A stretch of DNA of 64,000 bases, taken from assembly GCA_047519745.1 (NCBI GenBank), contig JAPVSJ010000109.1:6326-70325 (forward strand). Direction: 5' to 3'. A program made the translations under genes and the position numbers. The notes beneath the pieces are model-generated. The model saw nothing but the letters and a program-made list of their open reading frames with translations. It was not told where the DNA came from and did no database searches. This DNA is from Actinomycetota bacterium. Its GTDB lineage: Bacteria > Actinomycetota > Thermoleophilia > Solirubrobacterales > 70-9. Positions 4,337 to 30,882 of this stretch are shown one piece after another (position 1 is the stretch's first letter; every line of letters begins with the position of its first letter).

Positions 4337-4440
4337 GAAATCCGTCTCTGACGCGCCCTAGCTTCCTTTGCCGTCAACAGAAAAGCGGCCGGGGCGCTGC
4401 GTGAACAGCCCCCGGCCTGGCACAGGAAGGGGTACTTCCC

Positions 4441-5315: not shown

Positions 5316-5626
5316 ACGCTTCACTTCCCTGGTCAGGAAGCTTCTCGATTGTAGTGTGCGTGCAGGGATAAAAGCCAGGAATCAAGTCAAAATTACTGAA
5401 ATTCACCTAGGGGTCAGCCCAAGGTTGAGGGATTTAGGTCGAGGGTTGGTGCCTAGTCTCAGGTAGAGGTTGAGAGTCCTCAAGGAACGCTTGAGACCTC
5501 GAATCGGCAAGCACCGAGGCGCGTAGACTGTGCTTTGCGTGAAGCGGATGCAGAAAACCCAGCCCAAGCAGGGAAAGCCAGTCGAGATTCCGGTCCCCAC
5601 CAAAGGGGACTTCGACGTGGCCCTCT

Positions 5627-6879: not shown

Positions 6880-7794
6880 GTGGACCTGAAGCTCAACCGG
6901 GCGAAGGATCACTTCTACGCTCTCACGGAAGACATCAAGAAGTTCCAGTCCGATCCAGACAGCTACAGCCTCGCGCTTGAGCGACAGCCGAACCGTGGTG
7001 GCATCTGCAAAGTCGCCGATGTGCATCTTCCCCCAGTCGAGTTGGGGATTCTCATCGGGGAGTGCGTGCATCAATACAGGTCCGCCCTTGACCATCTTCT
7101 GTTTCAACTCGTCCTCGCCAATAGCCGCGGACGCTTGGCCCCCAGAATCGAGAGACGAGCTGAATTCCCGATCTTCAGCAGCGGTCCCAAGTTCAGAGGG
7201 AAGAGAAAGGGAGTGCCGTCGCCAGGTAGCGGACGGGCCAAGATCCAGGACATCGCGCCAGCGGCACAGGCAGCTATCGAGCGGCTCCAGCCGTATCACC
7301 GCCGGAAGAACCCCGGAACGCGCAGTCTTGGGCAACTTCAAGAACTCTCGAACATCGACAAGCACCGGCTCCTCCACGTCACCTATTCGGCGTTTAGGGG
7401 CTCTACTTTCGACTTCGAGACGCGGAACGTTGCGGCGATCGATGGCTTCTACTTCAAGGCCGGGCCATTCAAACGAAATGCAACTATCGCCGCATGGCAG
7501 GCCATTCCTGCTGACCCCCGCTTTGGCGTGGAGGTGCAGATGAAAGCAGAGATCCTGACCGACATAACCTTCGGCAAGGCCAGCCCCGCTAGGTCTGCTC
7601 GGGGGCAGTCGGTAGTGAAGACGCTTTACGACGTCGGCGCTTTCATCGCGTCCGACGTGCTGCCCCCCTTGTGTGGATTGCTCGGCCTCTCCAGCGAGTT
7701 CAAGCCGGGCAAACTGATCGACATGGAGACTGTTCCAGTCGAGGATCGAGACGCCATGTCTGAGAGCGTCCGAGTCGCGAATCTGAGCATCTGA
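6880..7794 (+). CDS. hypothetical protein with an Rx4H (HEPN-like) motif; start uncertain (GTG 6856 or 6880)
   Basis: Lower-GC ORF. The upstream part of the track ORF (from 6505) overlaps the transposase gene and is rejected. Motifs: ECVHQYRSALDHLLFQL (R-x4-H) and LSNIDKHRLLH. Confidence 0.6.
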   Translation: MDLKLNRAKDHFYALTEDIKKFQSDPDSYSLALERQPNRGGICKVADVHLPPVELGILIGECVHQYRSALDHLLFQLVLANSRGRLAPRIERRAEFPIFSSGPKFRGKRKGVPSPGSGRAKIQDIAPAAQAAIERLQPYHRRKNPGTRSLGQLQELSNIDKHRLLHVTYSAFRGSTFDFETRNVAAIDGFYFKAGPFKRNATIAAWQAIPADPRFGVEVQMKAEILTDITFGKASPARSARGQSVVKTLYDVGAFIASDVLPPLCGLLGLSSEFKPGKLIDMETVPVEDRDAMSESVRVANLSI

Positions 7795-15869: not shown

Positions 15870-16975
15870 TTCTGCGACCGCCGCAGCGATTCCATCACCA
15901 GCTCAACCGCATGCGGGGCCGCGGTCCGCCCGGGATCGTCGCTGGGCGGCTGGACATCCGGGTGGAAGGCGACGGCGACCGCCAAGGGGCCGCTGGCCAG
16001 ATCGACCACCGCGAACTGGCCGGCCAGAAAGTCACCGTCCAGGGAGCCTCCCCAGCCCGCCTTGTAAGCAGGGTTCAGCCCGGCGAAGGCCTCTCCCGCG
16101 CCCCAGTCGAGCGGGGCCGTCAGTTCGCCCGGCGCAACCTCGCGACTCACCGCTTTGGGAAGGCGCATCTCGGCGAGGACTCGATTCGAAATCGCCTTTC
16201 CGTAGACCCCGGCGGCAAGCGCCCGGGCGAAGCGAACCGCGTCGCCGATTCGCCATTCCGAGGTGCCAAGCAGCACTCCCGGCGCGAGCGGGTCGGCGAT
16301 TTCATGCTGGCTTTCCAGGTATTCGAGGCAGCTCGATTCGGGGGGCTCGACTTCCTCGCTGACCTTGGCCCGGCCCCCGGCGGCACGCAGCACTTCCGCA
16401 ACCGCCCGCCGAGCCCCCGCCGGACCAGCCCCAGTCGCCTGCTGAAGTTCGAGCACCACGCGGCGCTGCCGACAGTTCTCCGAACGGGTGATCGCCCCTT
16501 CCAGCGCGCTCTGCACCTCCGGCGTCAGGGTGTTCCCGGGCACCCCACCCCAACCCTCGGCGCGCAGGAGGCCGACCATGACGACGGCCTTGCTCATGCT
16601 CCACATCCGCATCCAACGCTTGCCGCCGTCTGGCCGGGAGGTAACGATCACGGGGTCTCGCCAGCTGGTGAACGTCGCCGCCGCCTCGACCGAGCCCCCA
16701 AGCGCGGCGGCCTGCTTGACGCCGCGCCTCAGCGCCGCAGCGATCTCAGGGCGATCGCTCTCCGGCGCTTTCCTGAGCGAGGTCGTTACGGCAGCGCCGA
16801 GCACAACGAGCCTCATGTCATGGCTCTGGCTGGCCGCGATCAGGCACATGACCACGGCGATGAGCGCGGTCATGGAGGCAGCGGCGATGCGCCGCTGCCT
16901 CCTGAGCCGCGTCGAGGCTCGGCGCGACCTCGTCAACAGGTCGTCCCAAGCAGCTCGTCGTAGCGCGGTTTCCAA
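15866..16975 (-). CDS. membrane-anchored serine hydrolase / class A beta-lactamase-fold protein
   Basis: N-terminal TM helix MTALIAVVMCLIAA, SxxK (WSMSKAVVMVGLL), SxN (RSENC) and KxG (YKAGWGG) motifs in the canonical order. The start may be a later in-frame codon. Confidence 0.65.
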   Translation of the reverse strand: METALRRAAWDDLLTRSRRASTRLRRQRRIAAASMTALIAVVMCLIAASQSHDMRLVVLGAAVTTSLRKAPESDRPEIAAALRRGVKQAAALGGSVEAAATFTSWRDPVIVTSRPDGGKRWMRMWSMSKAVVMVGLLRAEGWGGVPGNTLTPEVQSALEGAITRSENCRQRRVVLELQQATGAGPAGARRAVAEVLRAAGGRAKVSEEVEPPESSCLEYLESQHEIADPLAPGVLLGTSEWRIGDAVRFARALAAGVYGKAISNRVLAEMRLPKAVSREVAPGELTAPLDWGAGEAFAGLNPAYKAGWGGSLDGDFLAGQFAVVDLASGPLAVAVAFHPDVQPPSDDPGRTAAPHAVELVMESLRRSQK

Positions 16976-19200
16976 GCGCGTTCGCGCGCCCTGGTGGTCG
17001 AGTAGCCGGGGTCATAGCGCCAGATGCCACGTTCGTATTTGGCCCAGGTGAGCCCTGCCCATTCGGTGCACGACGCGCTCGGGTCATACCAGCGCATGCC
17101 CCGCACGTCGACCCGCGCAACGCCATTCGCTTCGAGCTTGTCGATCGCGACCCTCATGCCGTGCGGTTCGAGGTAGGGGGTGAGCGTCGCCTGCGCTCGG
17201 CGCCATTTTCCGAAGCCCCCTTCGCGCTGCGCCTGTCGTTGCTTGCGCTTGCTCAACAAGCGCCAGGCGCGGTTGAATTCGCTGTTGACGACCGCACGGT
17301 GGTAGCCGTAGAGGACCTGGCGTATCTGGCGGGCCATCTGTTCCTTGGAGATGAGCGGGAAGCCCCTGTGGTCGACGGTCGCTTCCGCTTCGGGTTCCGT
17401 TTCGGGCGCTTCTTCTTCGACGAATGATTCCGCCGCCTGTTCGGCTTCCGAGAAGGACGTGGCCGACCCCGAGGCGGAGGCCCCGCCCGCGGAGGTGGAC
17501 CGCGCCAATTGTGCGATCCCGACCGCGACGACGGCCAAGACGGCGATGACGGCCAACGAGGACGCGCCGACTCGCCATGCCCAGCCACCCTGGCCGATCG
17601 GTGTGAAGGTCGCCGCATTGGCGCCAGCCAGGCGCTGGGCGGTCCGTGACGGCTCGAAGGGACGCTGGGCAGGGACGACGCCGCGCCGCGAGAGCAACCA
17701 GAGCAGCGGCTCAGTCGCGCCCCTAGGCTCGAACGCGCTCTTGTCGTCCGCCTCCGGGACACGGCCGAGAGCGCTGCAGGCGAACCACCTGACGTTCCCG
17801 AATTCACCCTCGACGGCACGCACGAAGTTGCCGGCGCCATTGGCCTCGAGCCAGGCACGCGGCGCCTTCTCACCCGCGCTCGCGCGCAGGTTCTCGATCT
17901 CGGCGTCGATGCCGAAGGCGTCGGTCTTGCCGATCGTCACTGCGATCGGCACGTCCTTGGGATCGACGCCACCCTCGACCAGCGCGGCGAGCATCCGCTC
18001 CAGGACACGCATCGGCTCCTCTGGCGAGGGGCGGACCGCTTCGCGGGACTCGCTCAGCTCGCTCGCGTGTTCCTCGGCCACGCGGGGAATCGAGAGTGGG
18101 TCGACGAGGAGAACCAGGCCCGAGGGAACCTCGAGGAAGCGCAGGTTCCTGACCTGGTCGGAGGCCTGGTAGTTCTCGCCGGCGACGTCGTAGGCGTAGA
18201 GCACGCGGGAGCGGTCGTCACCCTGAACCTCGGTGACGAGTGCCGGGTTGCCCGAGATCTGCGTCTTCTGTGGCAACCTGCCCTGGCGCAGACCGCCAAC
18301 AACCTCGCTATAGGCGGTGCTGCTCTCGTCGAGGACGTCGACGGCGAGACGCTTTTCCGCCGCCATCTTCTCGAACTCGAGCATCGCGGCCGCGAGATAG
18401 GTGGTCTTGCCCGCGCTCGGCCCCGCGACCAGGGCGATGCGCAGCGTCTCGGCGAAGCCGATCAGGCCCGACATCGGGTGGCCCGAAGGACAGCGCTGCG
18501 GTACCCGCTGGCGGCCGCCGAGGACGGTCGTCGGCAGGGCGACCAACTCGCAGGAGCATTCTCGCCGGAATATTCCCCAGCGCCCGGGGACGAGATTGCG
18601 ATGCTCGGCGCTGCAGTTGGGACAGACGTATACGGGCAGCGGGAAGCGTTCGTGGTCCTGGGGGCACTCGTAGGCGGTCCGGCGCAGGCGGCGACGGACC
18701 GCCTCGGCCGCGCGCAGGATCCAGACCATCAACCAGGCGCCGGCGATCAGGATCCCGGCGACGAGCATCACCGGCGCCACGACGAGCAGACCAAGCCCAG
18801 CGCCGACGAACGGCGCGATGTAGCCCCCCGCGAGGACACCCCAGGCAAGCGGCGTCGTCACCCCGTCGTTGTATTTGTCGGCAAAGCGGGTGCAGGTCGC
18901 GCGGAAGGTGAGCATCTCGGCCCACGCTTTTTTCAGGGCCGCTTCAAGATCGCTCCTCAGCTGGCCGAGGATGTAGAGCTGGAAGGCCGGCTCCGGCGGC
19001 AGCGGCTGGCGCCGGGATTTACCGCGCGAGCTCACTGAGCCGCCGAGGTCAGAGGCAAAGGCGAGGCTGCCCTGGCCGAGGCCGATCAGGGCCCCGCCCG
19101 CTGCCCCCAGGGCAAAGACCGCGATTGCGGCCGCGATGAGAATCATCACCACGATGGCTCCAATGGCCAGCGCCAGCATGCCTCCGATCAGGTCGTCCAT
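16933..19200 (-). CDS. membrane-embedded zinc-ribbon P-loop GTPase with a C-terminal extracytoplasmic domain (paralogue of 24301-25473)
   Basis: Hydrophobic segments near residues 8-48, 118-163 and 541-566. Cys clusters ECPQDH..CPNC and CSCE..RCPSGH. G1 VAGPSAGKTT, G3 YDVAGE, LVLLVDP, G4 GKTD. Confidence 0.75.
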   Translation of the reverse strand: MDDLIGGMLALAIGAIVVMILIAAAIAVFALGAAGGALIGLGQGSLAFASDLGGSVSSRGKSRRQPLPPEPAFQLYILGQLRSDLEAALKKAWAEMLTFRATCTRFADKYNDGVTTPLAWGVLAGGYIAPFVGAGLGLLVVAPVMLVAGILIAGAWLMVWILRAAEAVRRRLRRTAYECPQDHERFPLPVYVCPNCSAEHRNLVPGRWGIFRRECSCELVALPTTVLGGRQRVPQRCPSGHPMSGLIGFAETLRIALVAGPSAGKTTYLAAAMLEFEKMAAEKRLAVDVLDESSTAYSEVVGGLRQGRLPQKTQISGNPALVTEVQGDDRSRVLYAYDVAGENYQASDQVRNLRFLEVPSGLVLLVDPLSIPRVAEEHASELSESREAVRPSPEEPMRVLERMLAALVEGGVDPKDVPIAVTIGKTDAFGIDAEIENLRASAGEKAPRAWLEANGAGNFVRAVEGEFGNVRWFACSALGRVPEADDKSAFEPRGATEPLLWLLSRRGVVPAQRPFEPSRTAQRLAGANAATFTPIGQGGWAWRVGASSLAVIAVLAVVAVGIAQLARSTSAGGASASGSATSFSEAEQAAESFVEEEAPETEPEAEATVDHRGFPLISKEQMARQIRQVLYGYHRAVVNSEFNRAWRLLSKRKQRQAQREGGFGKWRRAQATLTPYLEPHGMRVAIDKLEANGVARVDVRGMRWYDPSASCTEWAGLTWAKYERGIWRYDPGYSTTRARERAWKPRYDELLGTTC

Positions 19201-19886
19201 CTGTACCTCGCTTCTTTCGTGGGTTTTCTCTCGATGTCGAAGGCCGGGAAGAAGCGCGGCACGACCAGCGAGCCGATGCCGATCGCCACCGTCGCGGCGA
19301 TCGCCAGCCGCGCCTCCGGGCTGCCGAGGTCATGCAGGCTGCCGCCGAGCGCGGTGTAGACGAAGCAGCGGGGCGCGAAGCCAACCGCCGTGCCGATCGC
19401 GATACGCGAGAGGGGGATCGCGGTGAGGCCGCAGGCATAGCTGGTGTAGGTGAATGGGAGGCCGGGGACGAGCCGGGCGAAGATGACGCTGCGCAGGGGG
19501 CGGGCCTCCAGCCAGCGGCCGAGACGGGCGACCCGATCGCCGAGTACCGCGGCCGCGCCGGGGGAGCTGACACCGCGAACGATCAGCACGGCCAGCAACG
19601 CCCCGACGGTCAACCCGGCCAGTGCGACCGGGAAGCCGAGCGCGAGGCCGAGCACGTAACCGGCCGCGGCGGCGAGCAGGCCGGCGGAGACCAGCGCCGG
19701 CGTCAGCACCGCCACCGCAGCGAAGGTCAGGGGCAGCGCCGCCCCGCTTTCGTCGGCGAAGTCGGCCACGCTGTGCGCGTTCAGCGCCAGCCCGATCAGG
19801 ACGCCGACGGCGACCACCGTGACGACGACGAAGAGGATGAAGAGCCGCGTTCGCTCGGCCCGTGGCGAACGGCGCTCGGCGTTCAT
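19188..19886 (-). CDS. TVP38/TMEM64 (DedA superfamily, SNARE-associated) membrane protein
   Basis: ARLVPGLPFTYTSYACGLTAIPLSRIAIGTAVGFAPRCFVYTALG is the family core motif. 4-nt overlap upstream and 13-nt overlap downstream. Confidence 0.8.
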   Translation of the reverse strand: MNAERRSPRAERTRLFILFVVVTVVAVGVLIGLALNAHSVADFADESGAALPLTFAAVAVLTPALVSAGLLAAAAGYVLGLALGFPVALAGLTVGALLAVLIVRGVSSPGAAAVLGDRVARLGRWLEARPLRSVIFARLVPGLPFTYTSYACGLTAIPLSRIAIGTAVGFAPRCFVYTALGGSLHDLGSPEARLAIAATVAIGIGSLVVPRFFPAFDIERKPTKEARYRWTT

Positions 19887-21892
19887 CGCTTCACCAACCC
19901 TTCGCCGGCCAGCTGGCGGGCGATGCCGCGAAAGCCACCGGCCAGGTCGGCGAGGTCGAGGATCTCGCCGTCGACGGTCGCGAGCCGCTCGAGGAAGGCG
20001 AGGTTGGCCCCCTCGACCCCGCGGGCGACGATGTCGACCTCTTCCTCGACGAGGCGCTCGCGGAGGCGCATGGTCGCAGCGGTGTCGTTGGGCTGACCGT
20101 CGGTGAGCAGGACCACGACGCGACGACCGGACTCTCCGGCCAGGCCCTTGCCGGCCACCTCCAGGCCGGCGGCCATGTCAGTGCTGCCGCTGGCGCTCAG
20201 GCCTTTTGCCGCTCGCCGCAGCCGCTTCGGCGAGGCGCCGATCGCGGCCTCGTTCTTGGCGCTGGTCGAGAAGGAGACGAGCGCAATCCGCTCCCCAAGG
20301 CCGGCCTCCTCGAGCACGTCGATGAAGCCGCGCAGCGCGACCTTCGCCTCCTCCAGCTTGCCGCCCGACATGCTGCTGCTGACGTCGACCACGAGCGCGA
20401 CGGCGAGCCCTTCCGCGCCAGCGTGACTGCCGGGCTCCTCGTCGGTCCAGGCGAGGTCCCGTTCGTCGCGGTCGATCACGGGATCGCCGATGCGCTGGCC
20501 CTCGACGCTGGCCGACACCTGGACGATGCCGTCCCGGTCGTACTCGTAGGCAACGTCGACGCTGAGCGTGCCGCTTCGCGTCGCCTCGATCCCCTCGAAC
20601 CGCCAGCAGCCGAGCGGCTGGTTGTCGAGCGGACGTTCGGCCTCCCCCTGCAGCATGTGAACCTCGAGCCTGCCGCCCCCGCCAGCCGGAACGGCGAGGC
20701 TGTGGGGCTTGCTCGCGCGGGCCGGGATCGGCGCGTTGCGGGCGATCATCACCTGGTTGACGTAGCGATCGCCGGCTGCCGAGACGACGACGAAGCCGAG
20801 GGCATGGGCGGTGACGTCGCGGATTCGCGTCAGGGCGCCGCCGCCGTCCGAGGCGGACCCGCTCGCCGGTTCCGCGGCTGCGATCGCCGCGCCGCGGGCC
20901 ACGGCCTCGTCGGGGTCGACGCCGGCCGAAGGCCGCGTCCCGGTAACCCGCTCCAACACATCCGCACATGGCGGCATGCGGGTCGAGCCGCCGACGAGCA
21001 GCACCTCGTCGATCCGGTCGGCGTCACCCACGTCCTCGAGCACGCGAGCGACGATTCCCTCAGTGCGGTCGAAGAGGTGGGCAGTGCGCTCGAAGAACCG
21101 TTGCCGGGTGACCTCGACCCGGCGCAGACCCGCGGCGGTGGCGACGTTGACCGAGCATCGCTCCAACCGCGAGAGCGCGTGCTTGGCCTCGCGAGCGCGC
21201 TCTTCCAGCTCGGCCAGCAGCGCGGCGTCGTCGCGCGGATCGGCCTCCCCGTCGAGCGCTTCGACAAGCAGCTCCGCCATTGCGTCGTCCCAGTCCTTGC
21301 CGCCGAGCCGGTGATCGCCGAGCGTCGCCAGCACCTCGGAGCCGCTTTCCCGATGACGCACGACGGACACGTCGAAGGTGCCGCCGCCGAGGTCGTAGAC
21401 GAGCACGGTCGCGGTGCCCCCGATGCCGTGGCCGAAGCAAGCGGCGGTCGGCTCGTGGATCAGCCCCAGCGGCTCGATGCCGGCGAGGTTCGCGGCCTCG
21501 AGCGTCGCGCGGCGGGCGTCGTCGCCGAAGTAGGCAGGAATGGTCAGGATCGCGCGGGCAACCGGCTCGCCAAAGGTGGTGGCGGCATCGGCGACGAGGG
21601 CACGCAGGACCTCGGCGGAGAGATCCTCGGGTCGCCAGCGCCGCCCCGCCGCGTCGACCTCCCACTCGGTGCCCATCGCCCGCTTGAAGAAGGCAAAGCA
21701 CGATTCGGGGTCCAGCGGCGCCGAGCGCGCGGCCTCCTCGCCGACGAGGACACCGGCCTCCTGCACGGCGACCACCGAGCGAAGCCGGGGACCGCCATCG
21801 CGGGTGGTGGCGAAGTCCACCCGGCCGGTCCCGTCGACCATCGCGAGCATCGAGATCGTCGTGCCCAGGTCGATGCCCACCGGGGCGTCCAT
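19883..21892 (-). CDS. Hsp70-family ATPase fused to a C-terminal von Willebrand factor A domain
   Basis: GIDLGTT, TIPAYFGDDARRATLEAANLAGIEPLGLIHEPTAA, VLVYDLGGGTFDVSVV and VLLVGGSTRMP (actin-fold NBD). A beta-rich middle region. vWA with MIDAS DVSSSMSG ... VVLLTDGQPND. Confidence 0.85.
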   Translation of the reverse strand: MDAPVGIDLGTTISMLAMVDGTGRVDFATTRDGGPRLRSVVAVQEAGVLVGEEAARSAPLDPESCFAFFKRAMGTEWEVDAAGRRWRPEDLSAEVLRALVADAATTFGEPVARAILTIPAYFGDDARRATLEAANLAGIEPLGLIHEPTAACFGHGIGGTATVLVYDLGGGTFDVSVVRHRESGSEVLATLGDHRLGGKDWDDAMAELLVEALDGEADPRDDAALLAELEERAREAKHALSRLERCSVNVATAAGLRRVEVTRQRFFERTAHLFDRTEGIVARVLEDVGDADRIDEVLLVGGSTRMPPCADVLERVTGTRPSAGVDPDEAVARGAAIAAAEPASGSASDGGGALTRIRDVTAHALGFVVVSAAGDRYVNQVMIARNAPIPARASKPHSLAVPAGGGGRLEVHMLQGEAERPLDNQPLGCWRFEGIEATRSGTLSVDVAYEYDRDGIVQVSASVEGQRIGDPVIDRDERDLAWTDEEPGSHAGAEGLAVALVVDVSSSMSGGKLEEAKVALRGFIDVLEEAGLGERIALVSFSTSAKNEAAIGASPKRLRRAAKGLSASGSTDMAAGLEVAGKGLAGESGRRVVVLLTDGQPNDTAATMRLRERLVEEEVDIVARGVEGANLAFLERLATVDGEILDLADLAGGFRGIARQLAGEGLVKR

Positions 21893-24304
21893 CTAGCGCT
21901 CCTCCCCGCGGCGGAACACACCTCGTACCGCCCGCGAAACCGCGCGGCGAGGAGGGTGATCCTCGAGCCAGCGCTCCCAGGCCCGGCCGCGGCGCTCGCC
22001 CAGAATCACGCCGACCTCGTCCAGCTCGGCGAGTGGAAGGTCGCGGGTCGCCCGTGGGAGCGCGACCTCGAGCAACGGCTCGCGACAGCTCTTCGGCGCC
22101 TGCCAGAGAACAAACACGTCGGCGACGAGCTTCGAGGGGTCGAGGCTCTTCGCGATGCGGCGCGCCAGCGCGTCACCCAGCTCCAGGGGCCAGTCCCGAC
22201 CCATGCCACGCAGCAGGACCTCGATCCCCTTCGCGTAGTCGTCCTCGTCCAAGGACTGGATGGCCACCCGAGCCGCGAGGTCGCTCAATTCCCCATCGCG
22301 GGCGGGAGACAGCGACTCTCCTCCTCGCAGCAGGCGATCCGCCGCCACGGCCCAATCGCGAAAGGCCTGGCGTTCCGGCGCCGCCTCGAAGAGCAGGCTC
22401 CAGGCGAGGTACTCGGTGTCGCCGCGCACCGCGCCCGGGCCGTTGCGCAAGACGCCGAACAGCCGCCTCGCCTCCTCGCCCTGCCGAAACGACAGCTCCG
22501 CGAGGCAGTCGAGGGCCCGTTCGTAGTCGAGGTGAGGAGCCTCGCGCCCAGCGGCATCCCAGGCAGTGAGCAGCTCGGCGTTCTCCTCCGCCCCCACCGG
22601 GCCGTCGTCGCCGTAGAGGCCGCGGATCATCGCCTCGTGGCCACGGGTCTCCGCCCGACCCGCGAGGGCCGCCACGGCGGCGCCACGATCGGCGCCGGCG
22701 AAGTCCGCTCGCAGCAACTCCCACGCCGCGATCGCCTCGAAATCGCCCGCCTCGGACGCGTTCGCGCGCACCGCCTCCCGTGCCAGCGGCTGGTCCGCCG
22801 CTCGCCTGAGGAGCTCTAGGCCTTGACCGGAGCCCGCCGCCTCGGCCAGCTTCAGCGCGACTCCTTCGATGACCCGCGCGTTTCCCGACGCGCCGATCAC
22901 CGCGTATGACGCCTGCACGGCCGGGTCGGCGAAGGAGCGAGCGATCGGCTCGACCAGCTCCTTGTCGAGGGCGGTGTTGCAGCCAACCAGGCCCAGCCGC
23001 AGGCCCGCCGTGAGGTAGGGGCCAAAACGCTCGCCCCCGTCCGCCCCCGAGAGCAGACCAAGCCACTTGACGAGCACCGCGGCCGAGGGCGCCGTCGGGC
23101 TGGCCGAGTCCACTTCCGGCAGCGGCGGGGCATCCGGGCCGAGAGACGGGAGAAGCCGCTCGAGCGCGACGTCGACGAGAGCCGTCGCGTCAGGGTCCTC
23201 GCTTCCCCTTGCCGCCGCGAAGAGCTGGGCCCACTCCTCAGACTCCCCCTCCACGCTTCCGCCCTCCGGCAGCTCCGCCGCCATCTCGGCGAGCAGACCA
23301 GCGCCAGTCGTCGCGAGGCAACCGCGCAGAGCCGCGATCGCGTGCGGCAACTCGGCGGGCAGAACAAGCTCGAGCCTGCGCGCCGCCACCGCCAGCTCGG
23401 CGCCCGCGCTGGCGAGGTCGAGACCAGCGGGCACGTCGCGAATCGCGGCCGACACGGCCTCCGCACCGTCACCCGCCAGCGCCGCCAGGGCCCTGCCGTA
23501 AAGCGAGAGCTCAGAGACCGGAGGGGGCGTGGCGGCGTCGACGACGGTGACCGCGCTGCCCAGCTCGTAGGGCGGGAAATCCGTGTCGCAGGCCGGCGTC
23601 GTGACGCACATGCGCACCGACTCGGCGACCCGCGGCCTACCCTCGAAAGTGGCGAAGGTCAGCGCCGTAGCCCGGTCGGGTGGCAGCGTGAAGCTGGCCC
23701 AGGCGACCCAGGCCGCCGCGAGCTCCGCCTCGGCCTCGACGATCACGACCCGCGGGCCGCCGAGGACGGCGCTGAGGGCGGCGTCCGAGACGGCCCCGAG
23801 CGCCGGGGCACCGCGGGAAAGAAGTCGGCCGAGCACCTGATCGAGGTCCACCGGCCCGGGCTCGACCCCCTCGAGAACCGGGAGATCGGTCCGCGTCGAC
23901 TCCGCAGTGGACCAGTGGGGCGCCTCCCAGAGCTCGATCGGCAAGAGGCCACCGAACGGGTCCGGTTCCTCGCCGGCGATGATGTGGGAGAAGTAGTTGC
24001 CGAAGCGCCCGCTGTCGGGCTCCCCTTCCGCGCCGCGAAACTCGCGCCCGACGTAGACGGTCCGCGAGACGACCGGGCCAATGCCCTCCACCGGCAGGTA
24101 GCGCAGGTCGACCGGTAGCGCCGCGATCTCCTCGGGATTGGGTTCCGCCGGCGCATCGGGCGGCGGGCGGTAGCCGGAGTGGTCGGCGGCTAGCCGAGTC
24201 AGCTGCTCAGGCGCGAGCCCGCCGCTCGCGGCGTTGAACTGAAAGCCGGCATGGCCCGAAAGGCCGTTGCGGCAGGAGGTGTGGAACGCCTGGCGGCAGC
24301 TCAT
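21893..24304 (-). CDS. large helical protein with a GAP1-like (GTPase-associated protein) N-terminus
   Basis: N-terminus MSCRQAFHTSCRNGLSGHAGFQFNAASGGL... The rest is Ala/Leu-rich and helical. Flanked by the GTPase gene (4-nt overlap) and the Hsp70-vWA gene (abutting). The family name is from memory, not from a search. Confidence 0.55.
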   Translation of the reverse strand: MSCRQAFHTSCRNGLSGHAGFQFNAASGGLAPEQLTRLAADHSGYRPPPDAPAEPNPEEIAALPVDLRYLPVEGIGPVVSRTVYVGREFRGAEGEPDSGRFGNYFSHIIAGEEPDPFGGLLPIELWEAPHWSTAESTRTDLPVLEGVEPGPVDLDQVLGRLLSRGAPALGAVSDAALSAVLGGPRVVIVEAEAELAAAWVAWASFTLPPDRATALTFATFEGRPRVAESVRMCVTTPACDTDFPPYELGSAVTVVDAATPPPVSELSLYGRALAALAGDGAEAVSAAIRDVPAGLDLASAGAELAVAARRLELVLPAELPHAIAALRGCLATTGAGLLAEMAAELPEGGSVEGESEEWAQLFAAARGSEDPDATALVDVALERLLPSLGPDAPPLPEVDSASPTAPSAAVLVKWLGLLSGADGGERFGPYLTAGLRLGLVGCNTALDKELVEPIARSFADPAVQASYAVIGASGNARVIEGVALKLAEAAGSGQGLELLRRAADQPLAREAVRANASEAGDFEAIAAWELLRADFAGADRGAAVAALAGRAETRGHEAMIRGLYGDDGPVGAEENAELLTAWDAAGREAPHLDYERALDCLAELSFRQGEEARRLFGVLRNGPGAVRGDTEYLAWSLLFEAAPERQAFRDWAVAADRLLRGGESLSPARDGELSDLAARVAIQSLDEDDYAKGIEVLLRGMGRDWPLELGDALARRIAKSLDPSKLVADVFVLWQAPKSCREPLLEVALPRATRDLPLAELDEVGVILGERRGRAWERWLEDHPPRRAVSRAVRGVFRRGEER

Positions 24305-25473
24305 CGGCTCGGCAACGCTCCCCAGCTGTCGAGCATCCAGAGAACCGGGTCCTCCACCCGATGCGGAGCGACCCCGTTGGGCAAGCGCCCCTCGACTGGC
24401 GGTTCGCCGAGCGCGGAGACGCCGAAGTAGGCCATCGTCTCGAACTCCTGCTTGACGAAGGAGTCGAGTCGTTCTCCGAGCCAGCCGGCCAGGTCACTGC
24501 GGACCGCGGCGCTGACGCTGTCCGCCACTTGGCGGTCGAAGCGGCCGTCGTGAGCGGGGAGGGAGAAGACCGGGTGCCCCTCGGGGAGGAGCGGGCGCAC
24601 GGCGTCGAACTTGGAGACGGTCAGCGCCAGGGGGACGTCGATCGGCTTGTTGGCGGGGATGCCACGCGCCTCGCGGATCAAGCCGGTGACCCGGCCCAGC
24701 ATCGTGTAGACGTCGACCGCGTCTTCGGGCAGATCGACCGAGCCGCCGAGCTCATCGCGCACCGCGGCGATCTGCAGGGGGTCGACGAGCAGGACCAGGC
24801 CATGCGACTGGGTGATGTAGCGGGCCTCGCGTTCGAGTACGTCGAGGGACTGCAGGTCCTCGCCGGCGCTGTCGAAGAAGACAAGATTGCTGTGCGAGCC
24901 CCCGCCAGCGCCGACGCTGAGGCGGGCTACGAGCGGGACGCGGACGTCGGCGCCAATTTGACGTGCGGATTGCGTCGGAGCGAGTACGACCCCTTCGCGG
25001 TAGAGCCTCGGCATCAGCTCCCTGTCGACCCGGTTCCGGGTCGCGTCGTCGAGCAGCATCAGCGAGCCGTCGAAGCGAGGGCCGACGCGGTGTTCGAGCT
25101 CGTGCAGGGCGACCGCGATGAAGTTGCTCTTGCCGGCCGCCTTGGTCCCGATCAAGCCCATCGAGCGGCTCGGCGCTTCGGCGAAGCGCTGCGGCAGGTC
25201 GGAGTGGCAGTTGGGGCAGACCGGGCGCGCGGCCGCACCGCACTCGCAGCGCACCGGATGACCCTTCTTCACCTCGAAGGAGCGGCCGAGGCGGCCCTGT
25301 CGTCGCAGCACCCGGCCGGCAAGCGGAGCATCGGTGCCTCGAAAGCGCCCCTGCGCCTCGTCCGGTTCGCGGGGGCAGCGTTGCTCATCGCTGCCGGTGC
25401 ACCGGAACGCCGCGATCTTGGTCGACCAGGGCTGGAAGCAATACGGGCACAGCACTGATCGTGGCGCCGCCAT
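24301..25473 (-). CDS. soluble zinc-ribbon P-loop GTPase (paralogue of 16933-19200)
   Basis: CPYC...CP and CECG...CPNC. G1 GTKAAGKS, G3 FDSAGE, LVLLVDP, G4 SKFD. C-terminal FGVSALG...PVLWML is shared with the 755-aa paralogue. Confidence 0.8.
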   Translation of the reverse strand: MAAPRSVLCPYCFQPWSTKIAAFRCTGSDEQRCPREPDEAQGRFRGTDAPLAGRVLRRQGRLGRSFEVKKGHPVRCECGAAARPVCPNCHSDLPQRFAEAPSRSMGLIGTKAAGKSNFIAVALHELEHRVGPRFDGSLMLLDDATRNRVDRELMPRLYREGVVLAPTQSARQIGADVRVPLVARLSVGAGGGSHSNLVFFDSAGEDLQSLDVLEREARYITQSHGLVLLVDPLQIAAVRDELGGSVDLPEDAVDVYTMLGRVTGLIREARGIPANKPIDVPLALTVSKFDAVRPLLPEGHPVFSLPAHDGRFDRQVADSVSAAVRSDLAGWLGERLDSFVKQEFETMAYFGVSALGEPPVEGRLPNGVAPHRVEDPVLWMLDSWGALPSR

Positions 25474-25475
25474 GG

Positions 25476-28400
25476 TCAGTCGATCAGGAGCTGGTCGGCC
25501 ATTGGGTCGAAGAGGACGAAGCCGCTCGCCGCGCTCGCCGAGTCGAGGAAGAGCCGCACCGCGAGTGGCCGCGAGAGCCCACGCAGCTCGAGGCTCGAGT
25601 GGCGCGGGCCGTCGCCGCCGAGCCGCGCCAGCACCGCCCCGTCCGCCGCGCTGCGGGGCAGGATCTCCCCCTCGCGCCCGACCAGCACCAGCTCGGGCAG
25701 CCCCCCGTTGGCGGGCTCGGAGACCTCGACCTCGAGGCGCTTCTGCAACATCCCGGCAAGCCGCACCGAGTAGCGCAACTCGGTCTTGTCCTCGGTCCTC
25801 AGAGTCGCTCGGGTGCCCTTGCCGCCGCTGCTGCCATAGGCAACGTCAGCGCCCAGACGAGTCGCCGGGAAGACCGCGACGAACAGCGAGCGCTGGTCAC
25901 CGAGGTCGATCGAGCAGCCGCCGCGATCACGGTACTCCCCCAGCCTGTAGTCGATGGCGTGGGCACTCGCGTCCTCGGGCCCGGCTGGTTGGCGGTCATG
26001 GCGCCAAACGATCCGGGCGAGGGTGATGCCGGCGGGCCAGGTCCAGGTGACCTGAGCCTGGCGACCGTTGGCGACGGCGCGCACGTTCGAGATCTCGGGC
26101 AAGGCCACGTGGCGAACCGCCGCGCCGGCAACCGCGGTCGTGCCAGCGACAGTGACCGCCTGATAGAAGCAGGGGCCCGTTGGCGGTTCGGGGTCGACGG
26201 CGGCCGATCCACTTACCTCAAGCGCCTGGCCCAGCCCGGACAGCTCGGCAAGCTCGAGCTCAGCCCCTGGCTTCAGCTCCGGATCCTCAGCGCACCTGAA
26301 GATCGAGAGGGTGCCGTTCTCCGGCGGCTCGAAGCCGAGAGCGACGCCAGTCGACCGCGCGAGCACGATCAGCTCACCGAGCGGCTTGGGTCGTTCAACC
26401 GGCTGGGCGAACGCCGTCAGGCCCGGGGTTCGGACCGCCTCCCCACCCGGCACCGGGTATTCGACCCGCACGAAATAGGTGTAGCGACGGCCGTTGACGA
26501 CGAAGCGATCGGTGACGCCCGCGGCATCGGGGTCGAGCGTGATCTCGGAACGATCCGACTCGTCGCGGCGGCGGACCTCGACCCGGCCCGTCTCTGCACG
26601 GGCCGTCCAGGACAGGCGCACCTCGCCATCACCCTCGCTGACGGCGAGGTCTCCCACCTCGTGCGCCGCGACCGCCGGTGCCGAGGTCGCAATAGTGGAG
26701 CGTGCTCCGCCCCGGACGGCCTCGACTGAGTAACGGACGACCGCCCCAGGTGCGGCCCCGTCGTCCTCGATCTCGAGCCCGTCGGTTTCCCCGACGAGCA
26801 CCCTGCCCTTACCGCGGATGTCCCGGAAGACCACGTAGGCAACGCCTCTGGTCAGCGATGGCGCCCAGCCGATCATCATCGCCGTCCCGCCCGCGACCGC
26901 CTCCACGGCGCTGGGCGGCTCGAGCGGCAGCTTCTCCAGCTCGCGCTCCGCCTCGGCACAATCGGCCGCGAAGTTGAGTGCCTCCAGCAGCAACTGCTCC
27001 CTCGACGCTCCCTGGAGCCCGAGCGCCTTCGCCAGTGCCACCTCGGCTTCACCCACCCGCTCGCGCGAGGCTTCCAGCGCCCCTGCAGGCAGTTCCCCGG
27101 TAGGCCCGGGGAAATCTTTGGCGGCCTTCTCGAGCTCCCCGAGCAGCCGGCGCGCGGCATAGTGGCGACGCTCGCCTCGTGCCTCATCGACTTCCGCCCA
27201 GGCGCGTTTGGCGCCTTCCACGGCTGCCGTAACGCGGCGTGCCGCGGCCTGCAGCTCGGCGTTCGAGCTGCCGAGGATCTGCGTCGCCTCCTCGAGCTCG
27301 GACCGCGCCCGGCCCACCCTCCCCTCGTCGACCAACTCGGGCAGCCGAGAGACGGTGCGGATCGCGGCCGCGTGCCGGTGGAGGTCGGCGCCGCAGGTGG
27401 CGCAACGCGCCGCCGTCGCGTCGCTGCGCTGACCGCAGCCGTTCGGGCACTGGACGAAGAGCGCCGTGGCGCAGCGCTCGCAGCGCTCGTGACCAGCGTC
27501 GCGCGGATGGGGGTGATTGCACAGCGGGCAGGCGACGAAATCGACCGCCGCTCCGGTGCGAAGGCTGGCGCCGTGTTCGCGGGCGAGCTCGGCCACCACG
27601 CGCTGCGCCAGCTCGGTCGTGAGGCCCAGCTCCAGCCCCCCGCGGAGAAGCTGCTCCGCCTCCAGCTCGTCGATCTCGCCATCGTCGGCGACGGCCTTCA
27701 TCGCCCGCAGGTCGAGTGCTTCGCGAACGTCCAGCATCAGCCCGTGCACGTAGGCACGGGGATCGTTATCGAGCAGATGGATCTTGGCCAGTGAGAGCAC
27801 CGACTCCCAGTTCGCCTTGGTATTGCCGTGGGGCCGAACACGGTTTGCCTGAACCTGCTCCGCGTACCGGGCGTCGATCGCAGCTCGGTCAGCGGTGATC
27901 TCCAAGCCAAAGGCGTGGAAGAGGCTGAGGCCGGCCCGAGGTTCGGCAAGGTCACGGGCGAGGTTGGTGAGAGCGCTGGCCACCAGCGCCCGCTGGCCCT
28001 GATCGAGGATCTCCGGCTCAGCGGCGACCGGTGCGGCGTCGAGTTTCGCCTGCACCTCGGGGCCGGCGATTCCGGTGCTGGCGGCCATCCTCTCCAGGCG
28101 CGCGCGCTGGGTCGGGTCGAGTCCGCCCGCCGAGCGGACCGTCTGCGCCAACAGCTCGTCCCACTCCTTCACGGCCCGCGCCGACGCCTCGGCGCGCTCG
28201 TGCATGCGCTGGCGCATCTCGTCCGCAAGCCGCTCCCGCTCGCGGGCATCGCCGAGGGTCAGCTTTGCCTCGGGGTGCTTTTCGACCAGGTTCCTGATCG
28301 CCGCCCCGTACCGGGGGTGCTCTGATTTCTTGTCCCAGTAGCGCTTGACCTCTTCGAGGCGAGCCTCGATTGCCGCTTCGTCGGAATCGTCGACATCAAT

Positions 28401-28493
28401 CAGGTACCGGTCGAACAGGTTCGGCAGCTCAGCCGAATCGATGCACGGGGCGAGCACGTCGCCCAGGTACGACTTTGGGTCGAACGGTCGCAC
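25476..28493 (-). CDS. 1005-aa multidomain protein: two J-domain-like helical modules, a Cys-rich zinc-ribbon cluster, a coiled coil and C-terminal beta-sandwich repeats
   Basis: NLFDRYLIDVDDSDEAAIEARLEEVKRYWDKKSEHPRYG... and SLFHAFGLEITADRAAIDARYAEQVQANRVRPHGN...IHLLDNDPRAYV. CPLCNHPH..CERC..CPNGC..CATC. Repeats such as GEVRLSWTARAETGRVEVRRRD and AQVTWTWPAGITLARIVWRHD. Confidence 0.6.
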   Translation of the reverse strand: MRPFDPKSYLGDVLAPCIDSAELPNLFDRYLIDVDDSDEAAIEARLEEVKRYWDKKSEHPRYGAAIRNLVEKHPEAKLTLGDARERERLADEMRQRMHERAEASARAVKEWDELLAQTVRSAGGLDPTQRARLERMAASTGIAGPEVQAKLDAAPVAAEPEILDQGQRALVASALTNLARDLAEPRAGLSLFHAFGLEITADRAAIDARYAEQVQANRVRPHGNTKANWESVLSLAKIHLLDNDPRAYVHGLMLDVREALDLRAMKAVADDGEIDELEAEQLLRGGLELGLTTELAQRVVAELAREHGASLRTGAAVDFVACPLCNHPHPRDAGHERCERCATALFVQCPNGCGQRSDATAARCATCGADLHRHAAAIRTVSRLPELVDEGRVGRARSELEEATQILGSSNAELQAAARRVTAAVEGAKRAWAEVDEARGERRHYAARRLLGELEKAAKDFPGPTGELPAGALEASRERVGEAEVALAKALGLQGASREQLLLEALNFAADCAEAERELEKLPLEPPSAVEAVAGGTAMMIGWAPSLTRGVAYVVFRDIRGKGRVLVGETDGLEIEDDGAAPGAVVRYSVEAVRGGARSTIATSAPAVAAHEVGDLAVSEGDGEVRLSWTARAETGRVEVRRRDESDRSEITLDPDAAGVTDRFVVNGRRYTYFVRVEYPVPGGEAVRTPGLTAFAQPVERPKPLGELIVLARSTGVALGFEPPENGTLSIFRCAEDPELKPGAELELAELSGLGQALEVSGSAAVDPEPPTGPCFYQAVTVAGTTAVAGAAVRHVALPEISNVRAVANGRQAQVTWTWPAGITLARIVWRHDRQPAGPEDASAHAIDYRLGEYRDRGGCSIDLGDQRSLFVAVFPATRLGADVAYGSSGGKGTRATLRTEDKTELRYSVRLAGMLQKRLEVEVSEPANGGLPELVLVGREGEILPRSAADGAVLARLGGDGPRHSSLELRGLSRPLAVRLFLDSASAASGFVLFDPMADQLLID

Positions 28494-28500: not shown

Positions 28501-30195
28501 TCAGGTGCGGCTCACCGAGGCGACCCGCTCCGCCGCGGCCGCAACCTTCTCCTGCGACATCACCGCACCCTCGGCTTCGACCTCAAACTCGAGGTTCGAG
28601 CCGCTGCTGTGTGACGCCTTGACCTTCAACACGCCGTTTTCGGCCATCGCGAGGGTCACCTGGATCGGCGCCCCCACCGGGTCGTTCCCGGGCAGCGCGA
28701 TCACCCCATGTCCGATGTTTTCGTTGTGGGCGAGCTCTTCGGAGAGCTCGGAGCCCGACTGTTGCCAGAGCTCGATGCGCACGGTCTGCTGATTGGGAAT
28801 CGTGGTGCCGTACGTCTCCGGGTCCGGATCGCCCGGCAACGGGGTGTTCGGCTTGATCACGTGATCGATCCAGAAGTCCGCGGGATCGGTCGAGCTGGGA
28901 TCGTGGCCGTCACGTAGGAGCTTTACGCCGAAGCCCCGGGAGCAAACGTTCGTCACCTCGGTGTCCTTGATCCGCTGCAAGGTGCTGAGCTCGAGTCCCA
29001 TCTCCTCGGCGACCTTCTTCTCGATCTCGGCGCTCGAGGACGGCACGCCGTCGGATTCCGCCTGCGCGGTCTCTTCGCTCAGCTTCGCCCTCAGCTCCGC
29101 CTGAAAGCCGAGCAGCGCCGCGCCCTTCGCCACCGCCTGGTTCGCGTCCTCCAGCTCCGGCACCCAGCCGGGGAAGGCCTCCGCCAGGCGCTCCGCTACC
29201 GCAGGCATGAAAGACGACCCACCGACCAGGAGAACCCGATCGATCTCGGGAGCACCGAGCTCCTTTGCTTTCTCCACGGTTTCCCGCGTGAACTCGATCG
29301 TCTGGTCGAGCAGCTCGCGGGTCGCCTGCTCGAACTCGTCCCTGGTCAGCTCAACGTTGTCGCGCGCTTCCCCCGAGACCACGATTTGGGTCAGCGAGTC
29401 GCGCAGGCTCAGCCCCCGCTTCGCCTCCTCCGCGGCGAGCCGCAGCTCGGCCGTCGCGATGTCGTCGTCGAGGGGATCGGGGGCCTCGGGGTGCGCTTCG
29501 GAGAATTTCCGCGCCAGCAGGTTGACCACACGTTCGTCCCACTGAGCGCCGCCGAGGCGCGCGTTTCCCCCCGTCGCGACAACGCGGATGTGACTCCCGG
29601 ACTCGACTGGTTCGAGCCGGATCACGGTGACGTCAAAGGTCCCGCCACCGAGGTCGTAGACGAGAACCGTTTCGTCGACATCAGCCCCCTGGGCGAAGCC
29701 GTAGGACATCGCTGCGGCGGTCGGCTCGTTGACCACGTCGACCACATCGAGCCCGGCGATCTTCCCCGCCGCGATCGTCGCCTCGCGCTCGACGATGCCG
29801 AAATAGGCGGGCACCGTGATCACGACTTTCTCGACTTTCTCGCGCGTCTGCAGCTCCGCGTCCTCGCACAGCGCCTTGAGAATGTGAGCGGATACCTCGG
29901 GCGCGCTCCACTCCTCCCCATGTGCCTCGAAGCGCCAGTCGGACTCACCCATGTGACGCTTGACCAGCTCCGACACATTTTCCGGGTCGAGCAGCATCTG
30001 GCGCTTTGCCTCCTTGCCGACCTGGATGTCGTCGGAACCGACGAACATCACGACCGAGGGGGTGACAGGGTCACCGTCGCGGTTGTTGATCACTATCGGC
30101 CGGCCGAACTCGTCAACCCGCGAGATGCACGAGTACGTGGTGCCGAGATCAATGCCCCAAACCGTCGTCGAGTTTTCACCGTTGCCGTTCCCCAT
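28501..30195 (-). CDS. Hsp70-family chaperone (DnaK paralogue, short C-terminus without an obvious helical lid)
   Basis: GIDLGTTYS, VITVPAYFGIVEREATIAAGKIAGLDVVDVVNEPTAAA, LVYDLGGGTFDVTVI and VLLVGGSSFMPAV. 564 aa in total. Confidence 0.9.
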   Translation of the reverse strand: MGNGNGENSTTVWGIDLGTTYSCISRVDEFGRPIVINNRDGDPVTPSVVMFVGSDDIQVGKEAKRQMLLDPENVSELVKRHMGESDWRFEAHGEEWSAPEVSAHILKALCEDAELQTREKVEKVVITVPAYFGIVEREATIAAGKIAGLDVVDVVNEPTAAAMSYGFAQGADVDETVLVYDLGGGTFDVTVIRLEPVESGSHIRVVATGGNARLGGAQWDERVVNLLARKFSEAHPEAPDPLDDDIATAELRLAAEEAKRGLSLRDSLTQIVVSGEARDNVELTRDEFEQATRELLDQTIEFTRETVEKAKELGAPEIDRVLLVGGSSFMPAVAERLAEAFPGWVPELEDANQAVAKGAALLGFQAELRAKLSEETAQAESDGVPSSSAEIEKKVAEEMGLELSTLQRIKDTEVTNVCSRGFGVKLLRDGHDPSSTDPADFWIDHVIKPNTPLPGDPDPETYGTTIPNQQTVRIELWQQSGSELSEELAHNENIGHGVIALPGNDPVGAPIQVTLAMAENGVLKVKASHSSGSNLEFEVEAEGAVMSQEKVAAAAERVASVSRT

Positions 30196-30249: not shown

Positions 30250-30882
30250 TTACGTCGCGTCTCGGTATCGGTAGGCACGAACCTCGGCGACCCGAATCAC
30301 GTCACCGGACTCCCATTGGAATCCCCATCTGACGATCTCGACCACGGTCTTGTCGAGCGACTCGTCCGTGGTCGGCTCGGTTCCCGCGGCAGCGTGCAGG
30401 CGTGGATCGAACTCCTCACCATTCCCCGGGGCGTACGCCTCGACGCCGTTGCGGGCCAAGGTGTCGAGCAGGCTCTCCTGCACCACCCGCAGGTCGTCGT
30501 CTCCCTCGCCGGCAACGGCCCGCATGCGCCCCACGTCGTCGTGGAGGCGAATCAGGTCGCGAACCAGGGGCAGTTGCGCATCGCGCAGCTCACCTGCGCG
30601 CAGACTCAGGTTCTCCGCGTGCAGCCGATCGACGAGATCGGACTGACGCGCAAGCAGGCGCTGTGACTCCTCGAGCCGCGCATCGAACCTTGCCACCGCC
30701 TCCCCCAGCTCGGGTGCGCCAGTGGGGGCCACTTCGTCGGCAGCAAGCAGAGTGGACTCAGCTTCCCCTCCCTCCACGCTGCTTGGCTCTGGGGTGACCG
30801 TCTCGTCGCCGCCGGGGTTAGAGCCATCACCGGCGCGTTGCGCCTTGGCCTCCCCAACCGTCTCCTCGAACGACCTTTCCAT
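30250..30882 (-). CDS. GrpE-like nucleotide exchange factor (first gene of the operon)
   Basis: LPLVRDLIRLHDDVGR..., LLDTLARNGVEAYAPGNGEEFDPRLHAA..., VVEIVRWGFQWESGDVIRVAEVRAY follow the GrpE C-terminal pattern. Confidence 0.8.
   Translation of the reverse strand: MERSFEETVGEAKAQRAGDGSNPGGDETVTPEPSSVEGGEAESTLLAADEVAPTGAPELGEAVARFDARLEESQRLLARQSDLVDRLHAENLSLRAGELRDAQLPLVRDLIRLHDDVGRMRAVAGEGDDDLRVVQESLLDTLARNGVEAYAPGNGEEFDPRLHAAAGTEPTTDESLDKTVVEIVRWGFQWESGDVIRVAEVRAYRYRDAT

Follow-up and report, generated by a model that had tools for sequence, protein, structure and literature searches.

A stretch of 64,000 nucleotides from a Solirubrobacterales genome (Actinomycetota; GenBank assembly GCA_047519745.1, contig JAPVSJ010000109.1, positions 6,326 to 70,325; hereafter the window) carries ten minus-strand genes that run head to tail from position 30882 to 15243, among them genes for two related GTPases, one soluble and one membrane-embedded. 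We identify this locus, almost certainly, as a GTPase-centric (DO-GTPase) system of the type that encodes an N2-type GTPase-associated protein 1 (GAP1-N2), with an HSP70/GrpE theme. It is an ordinary and complete member of a system that has already been described: the pair was published in 2020 as a prediction and has been modelled in Pfam.

Gene content of the locus

The window has a G+C content of ~70%, and its closest protein matches come from Solirubrobacterales metagenome-assembled genomes (MAGs); an identical copy of the 755-residue membrane GTPase is present in NCBI assembly GCA_047519805.1. Read along the minus strand, the ten genes encode GrpE, Hsp70, an FNIII-repeat protein, the soluble DO-GTPase, GAP1-N2, an Hsp70-vWA fusion, a VTT/DedA protein, the membrane DO-GTPase, and two small membrane proteins, such that the interval 16933-25473 comprises both GTPase genes and the three genes between them. 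Because all ten share one strand and meet in overlaps or gaps of at most 7 nt, with the single exception of 54 nt after GrpE, it is reasonable to infer that they form one operon. Promoter and terminator scans over the operon returned counts at or below shuffled expectation and are uninformative in DNA of 70% G+C. No second copy of the DO-GTPase system lies within the window. The genes of the run and the domains of the two GTPases are as follows.

30250-30882, minus strand: GrpE-like nucleotide-exchange factor, 210 aa, first gene (Pfam GrpE, E=5e-14)
28501-30195, minus strand: Hsp70-family ATPase, 564 aa (Pfam HSP70, E=3e-89)
25476-28493, minus strand: FNIII-repeat component, 1005 aa (AlphaFold2 model and Foldseek)
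24301-25473, minus strand: soluble DO-GTPase, 390 aa (sub-cut-off Pfam DO-GTPase2 match, homologues with PF19993, hhalign)
25207-25449, minus strand: two zinc ribbons of the soluble GTPase, residues 9-89, CxxC..C..C and CxC..CxxC (eight invariant Cys)
24304-25176, minus strand: GTPase domain of the soluble copy, residues 100-390, with G1 GTKAAGKS, G3 DSAGE, G4 SKFD, and G5 SALG (invariant residues)
21893-24304, minus strand: GAP1, N2 type, 803 aa (Pfam GAP1-N2 and GAP1-M)
19883-21892, minus strand: fusion of Hsp70 (nucleotide-binding domain and part of the substrate-binding domain) with vWA, 669 aa, accessory (Pfam HSP70 and VWA)
19188-19886, minus strand: VTT/DedA-family membrane protein, 232 aa, lineage-specific accessory (Pfam VTT_dom, E=3e-18)
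16933-19200, minus strand: membrane-embedded DO-GTPase, 755 aa (Pfam DO-GTPase2, AlphaFold2, Foldseek)
18691-19200, minus strand: N-terminal membrane module of the 755-aa GTPase, residues 1-170 (hydropathy, invariant residues)
18466-18678, minus strand: two zinc ribbons of the membrane copy, residues 175-245 (ligands invariant in 32 sequences)
17665-18453, minus strand: GTPase domain of the membrane copy, residues 250-512, with G1 GPSAGKT, G3 DVAGE, G4 GKTD, and G5 SALG (invariant residues, 121 sequences)
17491-17583, minus strand: fifth transmembrane helix of the membrane copy, residues ~540-570 (hydropathy; AlphaFold2 helix 537-567)
16936-17358, minus strand: extracytoplasmic alpha+beta domain of the membrane copy, residues 615-755, hypervariable with a conserved terminal Cys (AlphaFold2)
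15866-16975, minus strand: single-pass membrane protein, 369 aa as the longest open reading frame (335 aa from 16873 in the public gene call), lineage-specific accessory (one transmembrane segment at residues 28-51)
15243-15869, minus strand: small Pro-rich protein with two transmembrane segments, 208 aa (193 aa in the public gene call), last gene (hydropathy)

The two GTPases

An earlier, sequence-only reading of the window had described two paralogous zinc-ribbon GTPases, one soluble and one built into the membrane, with paired Cys clusters directly before the P-loop, and had set them apart from translation and ribosome-assembly GTPases. These points withstood closer analysis, and the coordinates given for the pair are correct. 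The 390- and 755-residue proteins are 26% identical over 311 columns (BLASTP, E=7e-15), and every motif pair that had been quoted is aligned: GTKAAGKS with GPSAGKT, FFDSAGED with AYDVAGEN, GLVLLVDPL in both, SKFD with GKTD, and SALG..LWML with SALG..LWLL (soluble copy first). Profile-profile comparison with hhalign, using a 27-sequence alignment of the soluble family and a 32-sequence alignment of the membrane family, returned a probability of 99.5% (E=1.4e-22) over 279 columns that span the GTPase domain in full together with the second zinc ribbon. The shared motifs persist in these alignments, and neither protein was placed in an unrelated NTPase family.

A joint alignment of 121 sequences from both families identifies as invariant the G-K of the P-loop, D-x-x-G-E, K-x-D, the L-G of S-A-L-G, and four ribbon ligands; in the numbering of the membrane copy, the cross-family motif positions are G264, K265, D338, G341, E342, K425, D427, L478, and G479. 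In motif terms, GK[ST], DxxGE, KxD, and SAL are kept throughout. The 27 soluble-family sequences share G114, K115, D201, G204, E205, K288, D290, S353, A354, L355, and G356, together with eight Cys residues (C9, C12, C25, C33, C76, C78, C86, and C89). In both copies two zinc ribbons immediately precede the P-loop; those of the membrane copy are Cys3His at each site, and their ligands C179, H183, C193, C196, C215, C217, C237, and H241 are invariant in the 32 membrane-family sequences. By sequence, then, the two proteins are paralogous predicted GTPases of one family with all five G motifs intact, and both look catalytically competent.

The 755-residue protein matches Pfam DO-GTPase2 with 39.6 bits (cut-off 27) and DO-GTPase1 with 24.9 bits. 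We assign the 390-residue protein to the DO-GTPase2 family as well, because of the hhalign match to the membrane family and because many of its close homologues carry PF19993. Neither GTPase matches the Pfam or NCBIfam models for translation and ribosome-assembly GTPases (EF-Tu/EF-G, Era, Der, Obg, HflX), and a sequence search of the PDB with the soluble GTPase gave nothing. The AlphaFold2 model of the 755-residue protein (mean pLDDT 85.2) contains a Ras-like core, and its top 50 listed Foldseek matches in the PDB are, with essentially no exception, TRAFAC GTPases or complexes that include one (E ~1e-5 to 1e-3). Named neighbours include EF2, eRF3, Rap1, M-Ras, atlastin, MglA, and GIMAP7, all of them distant; EF2 and eRF3 are neighbours at the level of fold only.

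Hydropathy analysis identifies no hydrophobic segment in the 390-residue protein and three hydrophobic stretches in the 755-residue protein, at residues ~1-44, 121-168, and 540-570. The N-terminal membrane module is built from two stretches of ~45 hydrophobic residues that flank a conserved basic loop, RG..RR.P..PEPAF.LY, in which R59, G60, R64, P69, E70, P71, A72, and Y76 are invariant across the 32 membrane-family sequences. AlphaFold2 renders each stretch as one long helix and thus draws two; from their length and charge we infer four N-terminal transmembrane helices, arranged as two hairpins. The basic loop (residues 48-118) and the RRRLRR run after residue 168 would place the ribbons and GTPase domain in the cytoplasm, a placement that in turn favours the two hairpins. 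In the membrane copy the ribbons and GTPase domain are accordingly predicted to lie in the cytoplasm, between the hydrophobic hairpins and the fifth transmembrane helix, with the hypervariable domain outside.

This outside domain (residues 615-755) is modelled with pLDDT >90 as four helices and a four-stranded sheet. Pfam gave nothing for it in isolation, and an NTF2-like fold is an impression from its predicted secondary structure only. Other family members bear different C-terminal domains, for example SH3_3. Median identity along the membrane GTPase is 80% in the ribbons, its most conserved part, 54% in the GTPase domain, and 24% in the outside C-terminal domain.

Partner genes

GAP1 begins within the soluble GTPase gene, its start overlapping the GTPase stop by 4 nt. 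The 803-residue product matches Pfam GAP1-N2 (E=2.8e-30) and GAP1-M (E=2.7e-12), with no Pfam match for a GAP1-C domain. Two Hsp70-family proteins are encoded. In the 564-residue protein the nucleotide-binding domain is clear and the C-terminal ~200 residues are divergent; NCBIfam DnaK models match residues 11-362, far under their equivalog cut-offs. The 669-residue fusion matches Pfam HSP70 over residues 5-468 (E=7e-93) and VWA over residues 498-642 (E=9e-16).

The 1005-residue protein between Hsp70 and the soluble GTPase has no significant Pfam match, either as a whole or for its N-terminal part alone. Its AlphaFold2 model (mean pLDDT 85.8) comprises a helical region (1-306), a double zinc ribbon (319-368), a second helical region (371-520), and about five beta-sandwich domains (528-1005), and its best Foldseek match in the PDB is to repeats 7-10 of human fibronectin FnIII (E=4e-12). 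Eight Cys residues fall within residues 322-367, and close homologues give weak DZR matches. Within the protein, conservation is lowest in FNIII repeats 1-3. The N-terminus (residues ~25-98, window positions 28200-28420) looks like a J domain in its helix pattern, carries a conserved H-[PA]-[RK]-Y motif, and could be a degenerate Hsp70-binding module. A genuine J domain was considered for this segment and set aside, as hhalign against a small J-domain alignment gave 1.5% probability and Pfam gave nothing. Fusion of the FNIII protein to a DnaJ domain or to TPR repeats is a feature of the published HSP70 theme; Pfam found neither DnaJ nor TPR in the FNIII protein, except for one weak TPR_19 match in a homologue.

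The 369-residue membrane protein has no Pfam match, and a PDB sequence search returned matches at chance level only. A serine beta-lactamase or penicillin-binding-protein-like hydrolase, suggested by SMSK and KAG motifs seen by eye, was rejected, with neither Pfam nor PDB sequence support.

Relatives of the locus

A scan of one genome per species with soluble-family motifs yielded 221 relatives, from which we kept 80 loci with 10-kb flanks. These come from Solirubrobacterales, Streptomyces, Catenulispora, Nocardiopsis, Bacillota, Chloroflexota, and one alphaproteobacterial MAG. Co-occurrence was counted over the 70 loci in which 6 kb or more of downstream sequence follows the soluble gene. Throughout, a recurring gene order is FNIII protein, soluble GTPase, GAP1, membrane GTPase. 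A membrane-type paralogue accompanies the soluble type in 68 of the 70 loci, and GAP1 directly follows the soluble GTPase in 69. BLAST detected the FNIII protein in 49, Hsp70 in 20, GrpE in 16, where it lies upstream of the Hsp70 gene, and the Hsp70-vWA fusion in 14; the VTT/DedA gene occurs in only 5.

The sequence-only reading had asked for a phylogeny in which the two copies form separate, co-occurring orthologous groups, and this is the pattern we recover. In a neighbour-joining tree of 155 GTPase domains, the bipartition into soluble and membrane types is present in 200/200 bootstraps, and paralogues of the same locus are 18-30% identical. This low identity within loci and the clean separation of the clades indicate that the duplication is old and that the pair has been kept or transferred together. 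The two GTPases are thus two ancient orthologous clades that, in Actinomycetota, Chloroflexota, and Bacillota, travel in the company of GAP1 and the FNIII protein. Four loci from Solirubrobacteraceae carry two membrane-type genes, at the following positions.

L006: 1049-3295 and 18708-21017
L009: 15781-17970 and 19332-21170
L010: 15729-18059 and 19423-21168
L011: 15831-18086 and 19451-21172

The surroundings and accessory parts of the system vary. Translated similarity between the window and the 16 closest loci ends at ~15.87 and ~30.77 kb, none of the genes that flank the operon in the window stands beside it in related loci, and the operon lacks a conserved genomic position even in relatives that share 76-89% identity in the soluble GTPase. 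The Hsp70-vWA fusion is absent from the close relatives L001, L003, and L005 and present in L004 and L015; full-length fusions recur in Bacillota, Chloroflexota, and the alphaproteobacterial MAG, where they precede the FNIII gene. The gene for the 369-residue protein follows the membrane GTPase in L001, L003, L004, L013, and L015. Weak homologues of the 208-residue Pro-rich protein (31-32% identity) are encoded upstream of GrpE, at about 3400-4470, in four Solirubrobacteraceae loci (L007, L008, L010, and L011), and this protein may belong to the system in both arrangements. Across components, conservation is highest for the soluble GTPase and Hsp70 and lowest for GAP1 and the FNIII protein. 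We also note that the Hsp70 and FNIII genes of L006 (5082-6953 and 7376-11161) are split into several frames, which could reflect pseudogenisation or long-read assembly error.

An adjacent tRNA-like gene

Just downstream of the operon, between its last gene and a MarR gene (14352-14804), lies a tRNA-like gene on the plus strand (14930-15018). ARAGORN calls it tRNA-Leu(GAG). It escapes the Rfam tRNA model, and the highest-scoring Rfam match is tRNA-Sec at 40.2 bits, under the cut-off of 47. In its minimum-free-energy fold the acceptor stem is 8 bp long, the D stem 6 bp (closing a 4-nt loop), and the T stem 4 bp; the variable arm is long and the discriminator is G. As modelled, this is the 8/4 "allo-tRNA"(GAG)-like shape. 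An (8/4) allo-tRNA-GAG inserts Ser at CUC codons and is toxic in E. coli, and genes for allo-tRNAs frequently lie close to toxin-antitoxin loci (Mukai et al., PMC5389517). The allo-tRNA-like gene is absent from related DO-GTPase loci, and a role as mistranslation effector of the system is for that reason unlikely. A Streptomyces locus (L043) carries two ARAGORN tRNA-Leu(GAG) genes of its own, at 5335-5422 and 7289-7376, just upstream of the FNIII gene.

Discussion

We identify the paired GTPases of this locus as components of a described system. Kaur, Burroughs, Iyer and Aravind (eLife 2020, PMC7159879) defined the DO-GTPases as a new family of TRAFAC GTPases whose Walker B motif contains Glu, and reported that GAP1 is encoded immediately downstream of the DO-GTPase, that the GAP1-N2-type GTPase bears two N-terminal zinc ribbons, and that a linked protein has rapidly evolving FNIII repeats. 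One theme, which accounts for 14% of neighbourhoods and occurs in actinobacteria and firmicutes, brings in HSP70 and GrpE and, in some cases, another HSP70 that lacks the peptide-binding domain. The corresponding Pfam models are PF19993, PF19975, PF20013, and PF20014. The present locus agrees in its paralogous TRAFAC GTPases with the Walker B Glu and two N-terminal zinc ribbons, in a second copy with N-terminal transmembrane helices, one C-terminal transmembrane helix, and an outside domain, in a GAP1-N2/M protein right after the GTPase, and in its FNIII-repeat protein, Hsp70, GrpE, second Hsp70, and actinobacterial host. In GAP1-N2 systems the second GTPase has four N-terminal transmembrane helices and one C-terminal helix, often with an extracytoplasmic domain; the membrane copy here fits, with a predicted four. 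The sequence-only reading was right about the paralogous pair; it erred in taking the pair as a stand-alone novelty and missed the GAP1-N2, FNIII, GrpE, vWA, and two Hsp70 partners.

The locus departs from the published description in detail. Its second Hsp70 is fused to vWA, whereas the 2020 text mentions only the missing peptide-binding domain; a VTT/DedA gene and two small membrane proteins have been added in this lineage; and GAP1-C goes undetected by Pfam. The same paper describes MoxR-vWA "ternary" systems (VMAP and iSTAND types), which likewise combine an NTPase that acts as switch with a conserved third component, with sensor repeats that are hypervariable and non-enzymatic, and with vWA, and which are also enriched in multicellular bacteria. 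Unlike the locus studied here, they use an AAA+ ATPase as switch, lack both GAP1 and the FNIII protein, and usually have enzymatic effectors. Actinobacterial tubulin-theme GAP1-N2 systems and VMAP systems are mutually exclusive (PMC7159879).

GAP1-N2 and related systems were predicted from comparative genomics to be apparatus for biological conflict gated by nucleoside triphosphates, acting against invaders or in programmed death (PMC7159879). Our analysis agrees with this overall: a GAP1-N2/HSP70-theme conflict system with a membrane-anchored, GTP-dependent switch is probably the best explanation of the locus. Similarity that ends at the operon edges, unrelated flanks, turnover of accessory genes, and fast evolution of GAP1, the FNIII protein, and the outside domain all suggest a role in conflict. 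The pattern fits a mobile, diversifying system in which switch parts are conserved and sensor parts vary, as the 2020 paper proposed. An immune role as such is a more tentative proposition, for which we would put the chances at even or slightly below.

We propose the following mechanism. Both GTPases would bind and hydrolyse GTP, and would pair across their nucleotide sites such that the soluble copy and GAP1 are held at the membrane. The fast-evolving FNIII repeats on the inside and the C-terminal domain on the outside may sense an invader or damage to the envelope, and sensing would bias the GTPase cycle and thereby set a threshold. The output would be ATP-driven action or assembly of Hsp70, GrpE, and Hsp70-vWA, possibly with the membrane accessories, and the final effect growth arrest or a change in the envelope. 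The core of this proposal, the putative heterodimeric switch, we consider about as likely as not.

Paired GTPases that act as one switch at a membrane have precedents, and such a mechanism is what the sequence-only reading envisaged when it suggested a heterodimeric, recruitment-type switch. The signal recognition particle GTPase SRP54 (Ffh) with FtsY, and the eukaryotic Rag heterodimers, each consist of two related GTPases with reciprocal control of hydrolysis; SRP and FtsY are of the SIMIBI class and work with an RNA partner, and Rag proteins pair via roadblock domains. The GTPases described here differ from both in forming a separate TRAFAC family with zinc ribbons and a putative dimer. Atlastin and GIMAP become active when they dimerise, in a nucleotide-dependent manner, on membranes. 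Atlastin, GIMAP7, and MglA have the TRAFAC fold in common with our proteins, at distant similarity (Foldseek E ~1e-4, 10-16% identity), and are without zinc ribbons, DxxGE, or a GAP1 partner.

Several observations weigh against a conflict system with a paired switch. We found no biochemical or genetic test of any DO-GTPase system in the literature searched, and the function is assigned from genomic context. A scan of the seven core proteins from Hsp70 to the membrane GTPase gave no match in PADLOC-DB 2.0. The locus encodes no recognisable toxic enzyme, and its neighbours are housekeeping genes with no integrase or transposase among them. The 390-residue GTPase scores 20.1 bits against DO-GTPase2, under the cut-off of 27. 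The two types do not always occur 1:1, as the four loci with two membrane-type copies and one soluble copy illustrate, and in two further loci (L013 1899-4274 and L014 1944-4301, both minus strand) the membrane GTPase lies upstream of GrpE on the opposite strand rather than at the operon end, so that it would be separately transcribed. The sample itself is dominated by Streptomyces and was retrieved through soluble-type motifs, so that the co-occurrence counts are not independent samples; the types were assigned by best BLAST hit.

These points bear on three alternatives. In the first, the same DO-GTPase/GAP1 machinery would serve envelope or developmental housekeeping: the outside domain would read the cell wall, and the GTPase pair would steer the Hsp70, vWA, and DedA-like proteins to remodel or repair the envelope of filamentous or multicellular bacteria. 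Peptidoglycan-binding domains do occur in other members (SH3_3 among our sequences; SH3 and PEGA domains in PMC7159879), GAP1-N2 systems are strongly tied to a multicellular habit (601/904 organisms in Table 1 of the same paper), VTT/DedA and two further membrane proteins are linked to the GTPases, and both the housekeeping flanks and the lack of a toxin-like effector or PADLOC match agree with such a role. We nonetheless consider it doubtful. A genomic position that shifts even between loci with similar soluble GTPases, accessory content that differs among close relatives, patchy distribution over phyla, and fast divergence of the presumed sensor parts are features that suit conflict systems better than core envelope machinery.

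The second alternative concerns the switch alone. The GTPases may be unpaired, each acting singly or as a homodimer and providing parallel inputs to GAP1, with the membrane copy relaying outside signals and the soluble copy inside ones. That 62% of all DO-GTPase systems have a single GTPase and 38% have two (PMC7159879) favours this arrangement, as do the loci with an extra or divergently placed membrane copy; complete catalytic motifs in both proteins mean that neither resembles a dedicated regulatory pseudo-GTPase. It is set against the presence of both types together in nearly all loci of this subtype, and against clades that have been distinct since before phyla exchanged or inherited the operon, as expected of obligate partners; on this evidence we regard it as unlikely. 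Far less probable still is that the resemblance is a generic P-loop one and the proteins are ATPases or inactive scaffolds: G4 reads [S/G]KxD where the canonical motif is NKxD, the soluble copy falls under its Pfam cut-off, and structural matches to solved GTPases are distant (E ~1e-5), but the four nucleotide-binding motifs are invariant in both families, the alignment covers the whole domain and a zinc ribbon, and no ATPase appears among the top 50 listed structural neighbours.

Within the conflict-system explanation, the membrane paralogue could itself be a transmembrane receptor GTPase, whose hypervariable outside domain would detect phage attachment or cell-wall damage and signal through the fifth transmembrane helix to the cytoplasmic GTPase, with GTP-dependent pairing to the soluble copy and GAP1 triggering Hsp70-vWA assembly. 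We regard this reading as unlikely; if true, it would constitute an outside-in, G-protein-based innate immune pathway in bacteria.

As a discovery the locus adds little, since the 2020 work already covered the pair, its zinc ribbons, the membrane copy, GAP1, and the Hsp70 and FNIII partners. What makes it useful is that it offers a clean, compact, complete instance of a system for which we found no published experimental test. The ancient separation of the two GTPase groups, their near-constant co-occurrence, and the fast evolution of the outside domain, FNIII repeats, and GAP1 give added support for studying the pair together. If the predicted function holds, the locus would represent a GTPase-gated immune or death switch in soil actinobacteria.

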